A stretch of 64,000 nt of DNA from Pseudovirgaria hyperparasitica (lineage: Eukaryota), in NCBI GenBank assembly GCA_010093815.1, contig ML996565.1. One strand, given 5' to 3'. The position numbers and the translations under genes were made by a program. Of this stretch, positions 14,841 through 24,830 are shown piece after piece; within the stretch, counting starts at the first letter, position 1, and each line of letters opens with the position of its first letter. Below the pieces are notes generated by a model. The model did not search any database. It saw only the letters and a program-made list of their open reading frames with translations, and had not been told where the DNA came from.

Positions 14841-16379
14841 GTACCGGTGATCAGCATATAGATAGGCGTAAGCGGCTTTACCATGTAAATAAACTCATTG
14901 ACTATGAGGTCGACCAGAGACCAACAAGCAGTGGACCACAAGATGAAGCCTGAAGCGTGCATGTTTGAGGTCTTCATCCTAGAAATGGCAGTCTTGTAGT
15001 TAGTGCTGCTCAAGAGTTATGATTGACTTACAGCACAGCCGAGGAATAGCTTAGATAGAGATGGAACAGCATCGGAGCATCAAATTCGCATTATTTGGGC
15101 AATATACTAATTTGCCATCTCTATCAGACGCCTTCTACTACAAAGTTTTGAGACCGGCCACAGTATGCGCCGGGCGATGTTCGCACAATAGAATGTTGCT
15201 CCAATCGGCCAGGCAGCAACACCAACGATATGAACTTGAAACCGATATGTAATTTCTCGCCAGTGCAACTCGCTTGCGCCTCGCTGCCTTCTCTGTGACC
15301 GGTCAGCACCGCCACACATATTCATGCGAGGCTGGCCAATTAGGGATCCATTGTTCGATTACTATGCAGGATGCTGCAGGAGTGCGCTGTCACTGGCTGC
15401 ATTTTCTTACGAAATGTGGAGTAAATGGCCTGAAGAATGGCCTCAACCACGAGGCGATTCCCGTGCGCTACCTAAAGGCAGACTTAGGCTTCAGTGAGTG
15501 CGGGTCGTAATGTTGAGAAAGACAGGCCTGAGGAAATATGTAATATATCGGGTTGGTCGCTCACTCTATGGTCACGGTATTCAGCTCTGCTTGTCTTCAT
15601 CTGTTTTGCTCTTATTAAGCTTCGATTGTCTCGTCAGACATAGCATCAAAGGCTTTAGCTATTTTGGACATCGTTGACTCCCTTGATATTGCTCATGCCC
15701 TACACTTGTCACTTGAATTACAGCCATTGGATCTTGACACGACGTTACTATACTGATCGGCGCGCTGTTTACGTCTCACCATACAGCCAAGAATGGCTGT
15801 CCAAGAAGAACCGCATCAACTTCATGGCTCAGCTGAGATTCGAGTCGCAACTCGCGTGTTGCAGATCGCAAAATATATTGTGACAAGCTTGAAAGCACAG
15901 AGGGGCTGGTCCAATCCAGCGTTGCATGAGAGAGAAGCCGCGTCAGTCAGTCATGAGGCTCAGCCAGAGCTTATGAGAGGTACCTTCGAAAACCATCACA
16001 TGGACACGGACTGGAAGTTGTCGAAGCAAGATCATCGTTACCGAAAGCATAATTCCGATGCATATCGAGTTAGAAAGGCTTGTCCAAAGAAGTCATCTGT
16101 GATGACCAAGAGCAAAGTATCAAGAATAAATAAAATTGAGTGGGAAGACTGGTAAGTTATCAGGTGATTTCGAGAAATGGAAAGAGATGTTGACAAGGAT
16201 CAAGGACACAAGATATTGATGCCCAGATGTGCTGTTTTCCACAAGGTCCACTTACCAACACCACAGTAGATGGAAGTCTGTTTGCTTCCGGACAAGTGAA
16301 TCCAGATTGGAGCTCACTTACTTGGGTCGAGCTTGCGAGGCTACTCGTATTCATTTACGATGCTCTTGCGACGCTTCAG

Positions 16380-18770
16380 ATGAACCTGGGCAGCAATGAT
16401 CGCCTCGTCAGCAGTGGCGACGAAGTAGTACACAGCCACAATGTCCACGCGGACTTATCCTATGTGGCCAAAATGGAGTATCTGTTGCTGCATTATCGCG
16501 ATTCGATGATCGAAGCCCTGATTCGCAAGACGGTGGAGCTTGTTGCCAGTATGCGATGGCAGAAACTCCAGAGAAGCCTGAGGCAGGAGCTCGACTGGCA
16601 GTGTCGGAGGTCTGTAGGTTGGTTTAGTGAATATCCCAACAATCAGAGGCCCAAGTGCACGACTTGGCCATGGAGTATCAAGCCATCCTTAGCAGTGCTC
16701 TGGGGCGTATGTTTGAAACTGACATTGTTCGCGACAAGTGAATGCTAACGCGAGCAGGTATGTTGGATGTTCTTTGACCGACCGTATGAACAATTCACCT
16801 ACTCAGACCCGGCACCGGCCCAGCTTGTTCACTTGAACCCGGCGGTGCCAATCGGGAGGATATTTCAACAGAGTGATGAGCTCAGAAACTGGCCGCCGCC
16901 TCAAACAAACGCCTGTAAGTCCGCCTTCAATAGAACACTGGATAGTCCAGAATCCAGGGATAGTTCAGGCTGTCACTGACAATGCATGATCGTGTACCAG
17001 ATTTAAACTATGGACGCCAGATCTTAGGCGTATCGTCTTCGGAACCTGAATATAGCGAATACAGCGAAGATGGCAGACATCGCGGAGTGGGATGGCAGAT
17101 TCCGGACGAAAATTGGATGAGGAGGGGCACTGCCACATCCCCGTCCACACCGACACCTACCACGCCCATCTCCTACTTGCCCAGGCGCCAAGAATCAGAG
17201 CAATATCATGGTCAAGGTTCGTGACAGTCTCCTGTTTATTTCTTGTTACTTCATCACTCATCTCGTCTGGTGACTCATCTAATTTGCTACTGCCCGCAAT
17301 TACGCGACTGGAAGCCTACTTTCTGGACTCTGAAGCCTTAGGCTCGCCGTCGCGGCTACTAGTCTGTGAGACAACGCTGACAGTAGGCAGACAACACAGC
17401 TGGAGGCACACATAACCACAACGACCGCCTACAAAATCGAGCTGGAGGGCGCCACGTAAGAGCAACAGCAACAGCCATCAACGTTTCTCCAACGCATTAC
17501 AAGTCGAACGCGTCGACACGGCTCAGCCATAATAATAGTCATCTCAGTGGAAGCTTTGACCACCTGCCAAGCAACGATATTATTAATGCCTCGTCGCCTG
17601 GCCACCTCGCCACCGAGCCTCTCACTCTACTCCATCATCAGGCAGCAAACCCGAACGTGCCGGAGCTTCGAGTCAACGATTTCGAAGATATATACGAACC
17701 CTTTTCGCCGCCTGAGCCATTTCATCGTCCACTAAACTCATACAACAGTCCTCGCGACTTTACGTATAACACCAGCCCCTTCCAACCCGAGATGGGCGAC
17801 ACTCAGGAGCAGTATCAACAACAACAACACATTATGAACGCGCATGCTCCACTACAGCCCAGTAATAGCCAGCAGAATATCCTGAGTCCGGTCAGTATCG
17901 CGATGGATCCGGAGCAGAAAGCCGCACAAACATACATCGAACGGCCAGAGTCGCGCTCGAAAGATTCGGAACACAGCGGCTCAGAAAATGCAGACGGGAT
18001 AGATTACTTCCCACGAAGGAATCATGCGTATAAACGGCCAGAAGACCCACCACGGAATGCCCAAGGCAGGATGGTCTGCAAATTTGCAGATAACTCGAAA
18101 GAATGCACCAATCTTGTTTTTGATCGCAAGTGCGAATGGAGGTACGTTTGTCGCCAGTAAGATCCGTTTAAATAGTCAAAAACTAACATATTGCAGCAAG
18201 CACATGGATAAGCATGATCGGCCCTACAAATGCAACGCGCGAGGCTGCGAAAAGCTTCGTGGCTTCACGTACTCGGGAGGTCTCTTGCGCCACGAGCGCG
18301 AAGTTCACAAGATGCACGGCGGCACAAAGAAATCACTATACTGCCCACATGCAGACTGCAAGCGCAGCTCTGGTTCAGGCTTTACGCGTAAAGAAAATCT
18401 TGCCGAACACATCCGGCGCGTTCACAGGACCTCTTCGGGGGGCACGGACGTCGGCAACACAACACAACTCGGTGAAGATAGTGTCCTCGAGAGTACAATG
18501 GTACATAGTCCAGATAATGCGCAATGGGACGGCCAGAATGGTGATCCGGCCATGGACGGTGTAGATCCACAACTGAAAGCCCTCGACACGGAACAAGCGC
18601 GAAAGAGAAAGCGCATGTCGGCCACAGCAACGGACGTGGATGTAGTAGGCGTTGCGGAAAGCGAAGATCTGCGCGAAGTCATCAGGAAGCTAAAGCTGGA
18701 GAATCAGCAGAAGGACGAGCGGTTACGAAAGTTAGAGGAGACAGTGGCAAGCCTTCAATCAAGGCCATGA
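16380..18770 (+). CDS. C2H2 zinc-finger transcription factor, probably with an N-terminal extension carrying a hydrophobic LWGVCWMF motif (start uncertain)
   Basis: Zinc fingers (CKF..C..FDRKCEWSKHMDKH, YKCNARGC..GFTYSGGLLRHEREVH, YCPHADC..FTRKENLAEHIRRVH) and a C-terminal coiled coil; intron 18142-18196. Upstream exons join in frame through introns 16707-16757, 16915-17000 and 17217-17390. The zinc-finger part is near certain; the 5' extent is less so. Confidence 0.75.
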
Positions 18771-20082: not shown

Positions 20083-21890
20083 TTATTCCGAGTGAGATCT
20101 GATCCCAACCCCATCGATGGAATGCTTCGAGTCACTGGACTTTCTGCTTATCTGGTCGCCTCCCTCGTTGGCCGTGTCTGTCACCAGGTCCACCTTTTCT
20201 CGTCCGGCGTTTGAAATGCTGCCTGATTCAGCATCAGCTGGCTCGCGTTGCGCAACGGCTACTTCGTCTGGCCGTGTAAGACCCTTGTCCTTGACTAGGA
20301 AGCATGCAAACAGGCAGACGCCCATGAACGGGGCGAGCATGATGAACACAGCGCGGCTAGCAGCCACGTACGACGCAATGATTTGCTGCTTTTGTGATTC
20401 GCTGAATTTACTGTAGTCTGGGGTCGAGTACGTTGACGCTGCCAGATACTTGAGATCGGTAGGGAGATGGGACTTCAAGACGTTCTGCAAGACAGCTGCT
20501 CCGCTGGCTAATGCTATGGCGCCGCCGGAGCTCCGCAAGAAGTTCCTGTTTGAGATGACGACGGCGCGCTGTGGTTTGGAGCAGTGTGCTTGTAGTGCAA
20601 CGATGGTGGGCTGGAAAGTGTTACCTGAGCCTAGACCGATTGCCATAAGGATGAAGACCATGGCTACGACAGGAAAGTTTGTGTCGAACAAGATGGTGAG
20701 TCCTGAGCCGAGGGTCCATATAAAGAAGCCAGACCATAGTACTTCGCCGTATCGTTTGAAATGCGAGATGTATCTGCCGGACGCGATCGAGAAGAATGTC
20801 TGCGTAAGAACGATAGGGAATGTCATTACAGCTGATCGCATTGGGCTAGAACCATAAGTCACTTTCCAAACTGACTGACAGAATGATGCTTACCTATAAC
20901 CCAGAGCATTCTGGTAAAACAAGGGCAGAAAGTATAAATAAGCATAGTATACTGCCCCAAAGAAGAAATTCTGGATAAGCAGTGCTGCCACGGCTGGATT
21001 TGTCCACAAACTCAGGGGCATCATCGGTAGTTTGGCAAATTTCCACTCGATCAGCACAAAAGCGATCAGAGATAGGCCTCCAATTGTCAACATCGATATC
21101 ACCATAGGACTGTCCCATGCAAAGTATGAGCCACCACCGGATATCGGTATCAGCAAGAAGATCACCGCGATTGATCCAGATAATAGTCCTGCAAAGTCGA
21201 TCTTCTGGATTGTCTCTTTGTAGTTAACCGTTGGCATGTTATGCGGTAATAACAACCAGGATAGTCCGGCACAGATGATGGACGTCGGGCAGAGGAGATA
21301 GAACAGGCCTCTCCAGGTCGACCGCTCTGCAAAAGCAGCGCCTAGTACTGGGCCAAGAACATTGCCCAGTCCAACCATCGAACCAAGAATTCTACAACAG
21401 TCAATTACAAATCCTTTTGAGGGAGGTATACATCTTACCCCTGGTACTTTCCGCGCTCTTCTAGGGTGACGATATCGCTGACAATCATCATCGCCAGGCT
21501 TGTGATGCCTCCGTTCGCAACTCCAGCAAGACCTCTGAAGATATATAGCATCGTTGCACTTTGACTGAGGCCACAAAGCAGGTCGCTGATTGCAAGGAGG
21601 ACCAGTGCGCTTACGAAAACTATACGTCTCCCAAACAGATCAGAGAAGCGCCCATATAGGACCTGGAAGACCGTGTTGGCAATCAAGGCGGATGTGCCAG
21701 CCCAAGAAATGGTGTTCTCGGCATTGAGATCTCGTGCAATGGTAGGCAGAATGACACCAATGCCGTTCTGGTCAATAAAACATATCAACAGAGAGACGGC
21801 AAGCACCGAGAAGACGATAAGCAATTGCTTGCGTGGCAAAAGGTCCGTCTGGTCATGAAGCGTGGCTTCGACATCTTTATTATTGCCCAT
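20083..21890 (-). CDS. MFS drug:H+ antiporter (DHA2-like, about 14 TM segments)
   Basis: Motif A (YGRFSDLFGRR), FRGLAGVANGG, SDIVTLEERGKYQG, GPVLGAAF and many hydrophobic helices. Introns 21392-21438 and 20846-20893. Confidence 0.93.
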
Positions 21891-24830
21891 TTGTTCAAGC
21901 TCTTTTGATGCGATTTACGTCAGGATATTAATGTTCTGACATGGGTAACAACCCTTCGTAGCGAACAGACGGTAAATATACATGACATCAACATGGTACA
22001 CAGCGTTGAACTCTTCTTCAGACAATCTTTGCAGCTCGGCAAGTTTGAGCCGATCGTCTCCACAAACCAATTGACCACCCTGTCGAAGGTCGACACATTG
22101 CACCGAAGAAGTATGGCGTCTCCATCCATGATGGTAAAAATTCGTGCGAAGCGTTATCGGCATGCCGCAGTTTCGGCATCTGTCCGTCAACCGCTACCGG
22201 CGCGAGTCGTAGAATCAGAACTCTCTCGCGGTTGGTTGAGTGCGTTTGCTTGCTAAGCACAAGGCCTAACATGTCCTATAGTCCAGCATTGTGTTAAGCG
22301 AAACCGGTATCTCGGAGTCATCAGAAGATCTGAAGATAGTTGTTGCGCATAGCATGCTGGCCGATGGTCTCGGGACTCCGATGGAGTCATAGGGATCCAT
22401 ATTCACTATGGAGAGAGAGCAAGGAAAGGAACTTCGTGCACGGACCACCGATTGGCTTTAACCGCGATGAGATGCCGATGTTTTTGCCTTCCATCTCGGT
22501 CAATATCAACGGTTGATGTTTTGTCAAGCTTTCAAACAGACCTAATAAGCGGCTTAAGGGCGACTTGACGACAAATTACTAGACGACTGCAGCTGCATGA
22601 TCAAGCTCTTTATTCCGAAGATCTCTGGTTTCCTCTCTATGCCCACGCAGAGATACCTGCCTACCATAGGTACTCTTCTTGACAGATCACCGTTGGGTCA
22701 TGAAGGGACGTCTCAGAACGTGATATTACATAACACACCGGTCCTATGCCTTCTTCTTTTCCAGAAAAGTATGGCATTTAGTCGATGATGCGTCCATCTT
22801 TCGGTGGAGGGAAGAAGAGTACCACAGTTACGGCCTTGTGCGACAATTGACACACTTCTTTATGAGCATGCGACCCGCCTGCAAGGCAGTTGGTAGTAGA
22901 CAAGACACGACGTACTTCCGAGTTCCAAGGTTTATGAATGTCAATTCACACGAAGGGCTAGCATCTCCCCGACGCTGGAAGGCTACGCATACTTCGATCT
23001 GCCGACCGTCCAAGTATGACCGCAGCGCAAAACGGCCCGAAGAGTCTTCTTCAGAAGATCATAAGATTGACAACATCCTATTATATTCAAGTTGTAACCA
23101 TCGACAAGCTTCCGTCTTCATTACTTCGTGTTAATGCTTTGCATTCTCATTATGTCGGCCTACAGCATAGAAGTTGCAACATGACCTCGCCGTATCTACA
23201 TGCCGTACTTCCAGTCTTACAGATGACCTGATCTGACAATATGTAGTACTTCCTAATTTTCCACTGCGCGGGGATACATAATACGATTGCAACACTTACG
23301 CGGGTCGTCGGACGTAAATTACGAAAGAATCCAGATCCGCATATCATGGCTATTCACAAATGTATCTCGATTTAGCGTCATTGAAGCATTCTCCCAGAAC
23401 CCGACGGACTGAGGAAAGCTGTAAACATCACCACATATCATTGTCTCCCAATCGATAACAACTTGAATATATTGTTGCTCGAAGGTAGCTAGTATCTCTA
23501 AGAATGACGATCCCCACCGCATCAGGCTTCCTCTCCCAACAATCAGTGTGGTCTGTCTGCATGGTACCCTGGGCATTCGGTGCACGAATACCTAATTTTG
23601 GCAGATCTTTTAAAATCCTTCGTGGAATTGCCAAGGCGCCAGACATGCAAATCAGGTAAAATCAGGTAAAATCAGCCAAAGAGCAATCTTAACCTAGGCA
23701 GATCCCAGTCGTACAATACTGTATGGTGTGGTATTTGTCGACAGGTTGTCTAGAGCATCAATCCTTACATGAAGAAGCTTCTTCGGGTTTTCGATCCTAC
23801 TGCAGACACGTGTTGTTTGGTTGTATTACCTTCTATCTGCCATAATACATGAATTTGACCTTGATCAGTCTCGTCGTACCAACGAGGGGACCTGCACGTT
23901 TCTCCCGAGGGTCCCAGCTTCGTCCGTGTGTGATCCTTCATGTTGCAGCAAGTGGTAAGGTGAACGCGTGTCTGTTCATGCCCATTCTTGGGGCCAAGAG
24001 CCGTTATAACATTCATGCATCCACGATGTAGCCTCAGCAGAAAAATCTTATCACGAGATCGGGTCCTGACTACCAGAGGAAGATAGCAGCGTTCGCTAGG
24101 CAGTCCTCTATGGGAAGCTCATATGGGCTGCTACTATTATTAAACCGCAGTTTTCAATTCGTCTACGTTCTGCATGATAAATTCTCCCTATAGCATCACT
24201 TGGGATTCAGTAGTACTGAAGATCGGGCTTGCAAACCAACGCAACACATGTGATTCGCTGATCCAATCGATGCAATGAACCATCATGTATACCATGCTTT
24301 CGGAGCCGATGGCATAAATAGCCTCGTGGAGCACTGGAAGCCCGTCACGACATCCTTTTTCCAGCTTTCTGGACCAACCGCCAAGCTATAAATATTTCAC
24401 CGGTCTTGTCGCACTGCTGCTCACATGCGAATTGCTGACAGCTGCAACGTGGAAGGATAATAGTCGTATCGCAGATGCCGATATCGTGACTATTGAAAGA
24501 TGACATATACGAGAACTTGGCTGCGTCTTTGCAGATCTTCAGGGTGGCTTCAGTCCATAGAACCGTTGTGTTACGAATAGCCCCTGTCGTTCCAGAACCG
24601 CGTTGAGGCTGGGTTCAGTATCATACGATAATATACACGACAAGCACATCATGCGATGGAATCCTTGCCTATTACTTGGAGCTTACATTGGGATGCGAGG
24701 CTAATTTTCTATAACACTTATATGAAATCAGCTGCTCAACTCTAATGCCTATATAGCTGAATCGCATTCGCGGAGACACTTTTCTCAATCTACGATACTC
24801 AACCTCAAGCTTTAGTTCGTTTCTTCAAGG

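Follow-up and report, generated by a model that had tools for sequence, protein, structure and literature searches.

Positions 15793-18770 of the window, by which we mean the whole stretch of 64,000 nucleotides of Pseudovirgaria hyperparasitica DNA that was analysed (contig ML996565.1), very probably hold a single ordinary gene of six exons, whose 852-aa product belongs, as the local orthologue, to a widespread group of C2H2 proteins of about 800 aa, and in which the acceptor of intron 4 ends at 17390. The gene lies on the plus strand, contains five GT..AG introns and reads through 2559 nt of coding sequence to a single terminal stop. An earlier note, made from the letters of this DNA, had joined an upstream open reading frame to a downstream zinc-finger frame, and contig junctions together with conserved, collinear orthologues bear out that the two are one gene.

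Exon structure and the acceptor of intron 4

Contigs covering the locus were available from two runs, X1 and X2, which derive from one sample within one study, have no library type on record, and contain 93% and 87% of the sampled words. Because their contigs skip canonical GT..AG introns, both runs were treated as RNA-derived. Every X1 and X2 contig over 15000-19500 matches the window at 99% identity or more, and each of the five gene introns is skipped with GT..AG ends in contigs of one or both runs. Contigs of this type cannot phase junctions into one molecule, nor can they prove that a junction is absent. The parts of the gene are given below, with the shorter side of a contig junction in letters.

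15793..16151, plus strand: exon 1, with the start ATG at 15793; residues 1-119 plus 2 nt
16152..16204, plus strand: intron 1, 53 nt, GTAAGT..AAG; contig skip in X1 (side 255) and X2 (side 28)
16205..16706, plus strand: exon 2, helical N-terminal domain and first half of the hydrophobic motif; orthologue tblastn matches
16707..16757, plus strand: intron 2, 51 nt, GTATGT..CAG, branch GCTAAC; contig skip in X2 only
16758..16914, plus strand: exon 3, which begins with the other half of the motif, VCWMFF (16758-16775)
16915..17000, plus strand: intron 3, 86 nt, GTAAGT..CAG, branch CTGAC; contig skip in X1 and X2 (side 30 each)
17001..17216, plus strand: exon 4, Ser/Thr/Pro-rich and poorly conserved; ends in phase 1
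17217..17390, plus strand: intron 4, 174 nt, GTTCGT..CAG, branch GCTGAC at 17376-81; contig skip in X1
17391..18141, plus strand: exon 5, disordered middle with conserved short motifs; finger 1 from 18077
17792..17794, plus strand: internal in-frame ATG (M546); a 307-aa finger-only product if used as a start
18142..18196, plus strand: intron 5, 55 nt, GTACGT..CAG, branch CTAAC; contig skip in X1 and X2 (side 255)
18197..18770, plus strand: exon 6, completing finger 1 and coding for fingers 2 and 3 (to 18425), a basic KRKR stretch and the C-terminal helix

At the 5' end, the earlier note had begun the open reading frame at MEYLLLHY and had suggested that a further exon might precede it. MEYLLLHY is internal, at residue 210, and the added exon (15793-16151) and its intron (16152-16204) are real, the junction from 16151 to 16205 being found in contigs of both X1 and X2. 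ATG 15793 was taken as the start of the protein because the start of the orthologues matches there: their N-terminal consensus, MA..KVLQ.., lines up with the start in the window, and M1 is at least 90% conserved among 63 sequences. A stop codon is located 5' of this ATG, at 15754-56.

Introns 1, 2, 3 and 5 have strong donors (GTAAGT, GTATGT, GTAAGT and GTACGT, respectively), and the two canonical introns followed by a phase-1 donor, GTTCGT at 17217, are present as previously placed. Intron 2 divides the coding sequence of the hydrophobic motif, the first half of which (..PWSIKPSLAVLWG) is coded at 16653-16706 in exon 2. Its contig skip has a side of 30 letters and a placement that is ambiguous by 7 nt; in orthologue proteins the string LWG|VCWMF runs unbroken across the site of this intron. 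Intron 5 interrupts finger 1, after ..KCEW. Within exon 6 the long C-terminal helix occupies approximately 18657-18767 and the stop codon 18768-70. As a side observation, the finger exons show a greater contig depth than the upstream exons. This contrast was not used as evidence, since each depth value averages a whole contig and the 4.6-kb contig extends past 19500.

Intron 4 deserves separate treatment, since it was here that a choice between three acceptors had been proposed. The branch site GCTGAC (17376-17381) and the AGs ending at 17383, 17386 and 17390 are all located as described in the earlier note. The rebuilt translations agree with it as well: acceptors at 17384 and 17387 yield proteins of 421 and 420 aa, both ending in GRQHSWRHT, while an acceptor at 17391 yields a stop-free frame into the finger frame and the full 852 aa. 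Across the intron 4 region, 60 GT..AG pairs keep the frame open, so that this intron is not fixed by sequence alone. The contigs select exactly 17217-17390. The junction joining 17216 to 17391 occurs in X1 only, in one contig with a depth of 54.1 and a shorter side of 28 letters (plus 2 ambiguous ones).

The clustered AGs had been read as alternative acceptors, the choice among which would decide whether the full factor or an N-terminal protein of 420 or 421 aa is made. Part of the expected pattern exists, as there are three AGs and the first two frames do stop after GRQHSWRHT, and minor junctions could have gone unnoticed since contigs lose rare variants. However, when junctions were sought as the earlier note had proposed, the 174-nt skip to 17391 was the sole one seen; neither the 167-nt skip to 17384 nor the 170-nt skip to 17387 appears in the X1 and X2 contigs, which cannot prove absence. 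AGs very near a branch point get bypassed, and the positions within this gene follow that pattern. Measured from the predicted branch A, the used AGs of introns 1 to 5 are at +11, +9, +21, +10 and +10, four of the five thus falling at +9 to +11, whereas the first two AGs of intron 4 are at only +3 and +6, for which reason we judge them probably unused. Near-branch AGs in intron 1 (+4) and intron 2 (+6) likewise gave no junction. A three-way acceptor switch is extremely unlikely on this evidence. In the single-gene model, splicing of intron 4 would use the acceptor that ends at 17390, both preceding AGs probably being too near the branch point for use.

Linkage of the N-terminal domain and the fingers in other fungi

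At E<=0.001 the last exon matched 396 of 2437 candidates among the longer proteins. The 120 of these that were listed are mostly 650-870 aa in length and belong to Dothideomycetes, lichen-forming Lecanoromycetes and Geoglossum, with a best identity of 57%. When orthologues were compared with the window by tblastn, all ten tested aligned with 16206-16784 (E 2.7e-16 to 6.5e-25) as well as with the finger exons. An HMM of the N-terminal domain (E<1e-5) matched 89 of the 120 listed finger-exon homologues, and a motif count among the same 120 found both a WGVCW-type and an FTYSGG-type motif in 87, the finger motif only in 29, the N-terminal motif only in 2 and neither in 2. The linkage of the N-terminal motif exons to finger genes in relatives, which the earlier note had offered as a check, is thereby borne out (10/10 by tblastn, 87/120 listed with both motifs). 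What does not hold is the notion of a special fusion: with the N-terminal domain carried by 89 of 120 listed homologues, this is rather the standard architecture of a C2H2 group of about 800 aa. For a specialist there is nothing surprising here, and the gene is an ordinary addition to a known protein group.

Of the 31 listed homologues (of 120) without the N-terminal domain, only P0075 (809 aa) exceeds 659 aa, and all seven named Sordariomycete entries among the 120 fall within this set. As such, finger-only genes or gene models exist elsewhere. Searching in the other direction, a full HMMER scan (phmmer) for the N-domain exon gave 255 matching proteins at E<=0.001, 34 of them at E<=1e-10. A word-index search of the longer proteins with this exon gave 1 match among 1427 candidates, a result that is uninformative given the 255 found by the full scan.

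A further set of 17 library ORFs was drawn from the listed N-domain matches of at least 400 aa in which the N-terminal motif is present and the finger-2 motif absent. Ten of the 17 run unbroken from the N-terminal motif and end at or just after ..KCEWR, which is consistent with an intron at the place of the window's intron 5 in other fungi.

The window protein was aligned with 53 orthologues of 740-900 aa. Conserved blocks among these 53 comprise residues 261-300 (48-61% identity), residues 621-740 (48-94%) and the last 30 residues of the protein. In the hydrophobic motif, W, G, V, C and W are invariant in 63/63 sequences, and the 12 Cys/His finger ligands are likewise invariant in 63 aligned sequences, all of them being present in the window translation. 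Exon 5 holds the short motifs P-x-[IL]-R-V-[TN] and the Met of ATG 17792. Upstream of this ATG, P502 is conserved in 52 of the 53 orthologues, R505 in 41 and P521 in 47, and we therefore regard the stretch before ATG 17792 as coding rather than as a leader.

This conservation bears on whether the locus could instead comprise two units, an upstream N-terminal gene and a finger gene with its start in or beyond intron 4 and ATG 17792 as its initiation codon, with the junction from 17216 to 17391 an occasional read-through. Such an arrangement would fit X2, which lacks that junction and whose 4.7-kb contig (record 13) begins at about 17342, 49 nt inside intron 4. It would also fit the finger-only public models, which are about 300 aa long in several Dothideomycetes and 340-510 aa in Sordariomycetes, and the occurrence of Met at position 546 in 42 of the 53 orthologues. 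ATG 17792 is indeed the first in-frame ATG of the finger frame, as the earlier note had it. However, the 17216 to 17391 junction is in frame and has canonical signals, and ATG 17792 is preceded by 135 open codons that lack an ATG and contain conserved motifs. Between 17217 and 17800 the only ATGs are 17586 and 17792, so a transcript beginning at 17342 would first meet 17586, which is out of frame and opens a 49-aa upstream ORF. The domains are also fused in 89 of the 120 listed homologues, and the ten library ORFs noted above are unbroken from the N-terminal motif to finger 1. Taken with these points, a pair of separate genes is very unlikely. The conservation of Met 546 may come from a motif, from the way a disordered region aligns, or from an internal start that is itself conserved.

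Parts of the 852-aa protein and comparison with known factors

The single-gene model gives a protein with a helical N-terminal domain (approximately residues 150-260), the hydrophobic motif (275-293), a long disordered middle and, after the fingers (641-738), a basic stretch followed by a long C-terminal helix. The invariant motif at residues 275-293 has the consensus ..PW[ST]IKPSLAVLWGVCWMF[FY]. The fingers form three tandem Cys2-His2 units. Matches of the fingers to the local Pfam copy are sub-threshold (PF17017, 18.9 bits against a cutoff of 27; PF00096, 10.8 against 25.2), and searches of that copy with the six exon translations and with four orthologues returned nothing above the cutoffs.

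Among Dothideomycete orthologues are P0002 (Parastagonospora nodorum HBH69_094040, 804 aa), P0014 (Zopfia rhizophila K469DRAFT_682341, 851 aa) and P0004 (Lophiotrema nucula, 834 aa). They are described as 'C2H2-type domain-containing' or hypothetical, and none of the listed entries gives these orthologues an experimental name. Pfam PF26176 and PF26177 are assigned to them in the collection; these assignments come from its precomputed list for the orthologues, and the models are absent from the local Pfam copy. A literature search found no mention of PF26176, PF26177 or the finger-2 motif string. The orthologues and the window protein share the order of an MA.. start, the N-terminal domain, LAVLWGVCWMF, the middle, three fingers and the C-terminal helix, together with the motifs P-x-I-R-V-T and Y-x-M-G within the disordered middle. 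Identity to the window is 49-57% over the last exon and about 30-35% over the N-terminal domain. However, finger 1 of the window protein has an insertion, being C-x8-C where most orthologues have C-x4-C, and its middle region is divergent from theirs.

AlphaFold2 (AF2) models were examined for orthologue P0014, using the 63-sequence alignment, and for exon 2 of the window, using a 79-sequence alignment. In the P0014 model the N-terminal domain (100-245) has a pLDDT of 80-96, the finger region (approximately 650-757) forms three strand-plus-helix units with block-mean pLDDT of 73-96, and a long C-terminal helix spans 815-850 at a pLDDT of about 90, whereas values stay under 50 for the invariant motif and throughout the middle region. 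The beta-beta-alpha fold of the fingers is thus a predicted one, modelled for P0014 and not for the window's own protein. The model of exon 2 has a pLDDT of 79 and consists of two long helices; a Foldseek search of it against the PDB returned no match at E<=0.001. For the N-terminal domain, the best match of the orthologue model in a VIA wide search was Ctr9 (Z 7.9, 85 residues aligned, rmsd 2.6), a score in the range that the tool regards as common for helical bundles. The ESM Atlas gave no usable feature match, and its structure rows were at TM<=0.45, so that these searches led to no fold for the domain.

The earlier note had read the hydrophobic motif as a possible tether to a membrane or organelle. 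Kyte-Doolittle values over 19 residues, a simple method, reach a maximum of 1.32 for the whole protein, inside the helical domain, and 1.08 at the motif, compared with the usual threshold of 1.6, and windows of at least 1.6 occur in only 2 of 54 family members. The hydrophobic run of the motif is approximately 13 residues long. The protein has no transmembrane segment by this measure, which speaks against a tether. Membrane-tethered transcription factors of fungi are of the SREBP/Sre1 type and the Mga2/Spt23 type. Both differ from the window protein in DNA-binding class, and the window protein has no segment at the hydropathy threshold. All that is shared with them is the idea of the earlier note, a hydrophobic segment combined with a DNA-binding domain.

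Among solved chains, AEBP2 and TFIIIA are the best sequence matches, yet at E 0.045-0.07 they are not significant. Like the window protein, they have tandem C-x4-C...H-x3-4-H fingers, and outside the fingers there is no similarity. Judged from its parts, the product would be a nuclear, sequence-specific DNA-binding factor that probably pairs through the C-terminal helix. The N-terminal domain with its motif would then serve as a protein-contact or regulatory module rather than as a membrane anchor. The gene also highlights a widespread N-terminal domain without a local Pfam family and a strictly invariant WGVCW motif.

Probable antisense splicing, possible alternative products and the public gene model

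The top match in the N-domain scan was a public protein of the same fungus, P0122 (XP_033605227.1, hypothetical protein EJ05DRAFT_471733, Pseudovirgaria hyperparasitica, 274 aa). It shares its start codon with the gene described here and is 100% identical to it over exon 1 (15793-16149) and over 16257-16610. However, P0122 removes 107 and 112 nt with CT..AC ends and is then out of frame to a stop at about 16836. Unlike the 852-aa model, it includes neither the invariant motif nor the fingers. The two skips are as follows.

16149..16255, minus strand: second antisense-type skip, 107 nt, GTAAGT..CAG on the minus strand; P0122 only
16612..16723, minus strand: antisense-type intron, CT..AC on the plus strand and GTCAGT..CACTAAC..CAG on the minus strand; X1, X2 (side 30) and P0122

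Skips with CT..AC ends are GT..AG introns on the minus strand, and they point to splicing of an antisense RNA and to an error in the public annotation. For the 16612-16723 intron the minus-strand CACTAAC sits 11 nt before the CAG. The 107-nt skip at 16149-16255 is absent from the X1 and X2 junctions, and these two runs may not be independent of the evidence behind P0122. The simplest reading, to which these signals point, is that an antisense RNA covering the gene's 5' half is spliced and that a plus-strand ORF was called on it.

The antisense signal also enters into a reading in which the same gene has regulated isoforms, through retention of intron 4 (giving 413 aa, or decay), modulation of the full-length mRNA by a spliced antisense RNA over exons 1-3, and an internal start. 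If intron 4 were retained, translation would reach a TGA at 17222-24 and yield a protein of 413 aa ending in GQGS. In X1, an unspliced contig (record 5, 17187-17418, depth 44.6) is found alongside the contig with the spliced junction (depth 54.1). The CT..AC junction from 16611 to 16724 is present in both runs and P0122 adds the second skip; donor, branch and acceptor signals on the minus strand are canonical, and Met 546 is conserved. Possible isoforms are, as such, a finger-only form from ATG 17792, which the earlier note had also raised, and an N-terminal-only product through retention of intron 4. However, unspliced contigs may be pre-mRNA, and the conserved Met is maybe part of a motif or partly an effect of the alignment. 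In fungi, retained introns and antisense RNAs often occur with no known function attached to them. We consider regulated isoforms of this kind unlikely.

A stronger version would be a locus with three outputs, governed by something other than the choice of acceptor, in which a spliced antisense RNA over exons 1-3, retention of intron 4 and M546 set the ratio of full-length to finger-only protein and in which ..LAVLWGVCWMF.. holds the full-length form at a membrane or partner until release. The holding would be achieved by, for example, lipid modification of the invariant Cys. Such an elaborate scheme is a long shot.

As a single gene of six exons, the locus gains most in annotation. The 852-aa gene model is better than P0122, a 274-aa chimera that was the one public model found for the locus. 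For the finger exon, no public protein of approximately 100% identity was present among the matches listed in either length class, so the analysis turned up no public model that covers the fingers for Pseudovirgaria hyperparasitica. The species is named as a mycoparasite, and an annotation pipeline is given, in PMC7082219. The main value of the 852-aa model is that it restores a conserved transcription-factor gene in a parasite of rust fungi, and the locus provides a concrete case of antisense splicing misleading gene calling.

Antisense-type introns and a possible antisense RNA over exons 1-3

Two introns of antisense type lie across the 5' part of the gene (15793-18770, plus strand, six exons), both reading CT..AC on the plus strand:

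16149-16255, minus strand, antisense-type intron, skipped in P0122
16612-16723, minus strand, antisense-type intron, skipped in the RNA contigs of both runs, X1 and X2, and in P0122

Donor, branch and acceptor signals on the minus strand are canonical for both. Because one of these skips is found in the X1 and X2 contigs and both are found in P0122 (XP_033605227.1), the 274-aa public gene model at this locus, we suggest that exons 1-3 are covered by spliced antisense RNA and that the public model is chimeric.

Within the same region, intron 2 has as its donor the heptamer GTATGTT, with which exon 3 also opens (window 16707-16765), and this repetition leaves the intron 2 junction in the contigs ambiguous by 7 nt. 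The intron, 51 nt long, is divisible by three, yet contains an in-frame stop.

Homologues in other fungi

Many library ORFs from other fungi, among them P0130, P0158, P0183, P0188, P0192, P0240 and P0263, end in ..KCEWR. Their shared end suggests that the intron within finger 1 (18142-18196 in the window) occupies a conserved position, and that in the species concerned the stretch from the N-terminal motif to finger 1 would be intron-free. The N-terminal domain and WGVCW motif are absent from all seven named Sordariomycete protein entries among the matches listed (P0081, P0082, P0086, P0087, P0103, P0116 and P0117; 340-511 aa).

The in-frame internal Met, M546 (17792-17794), is kept in 42 of 53 orthologues, within disordered, otherwise weakly conserved surroundings with the local pattern Y-x-M-G-N.

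The 3' end and downstream neighbours

Exons 5-6 are carried by an RNA contig of 4.6-4.7 kb (window 17389 to past 19500). It overshoots 19500 by ~2.6 kb, heading toward minus-strand ORFs at 20083-21914, and may reflect either convergent genes with overlapping 3' ends or an assembly merge.
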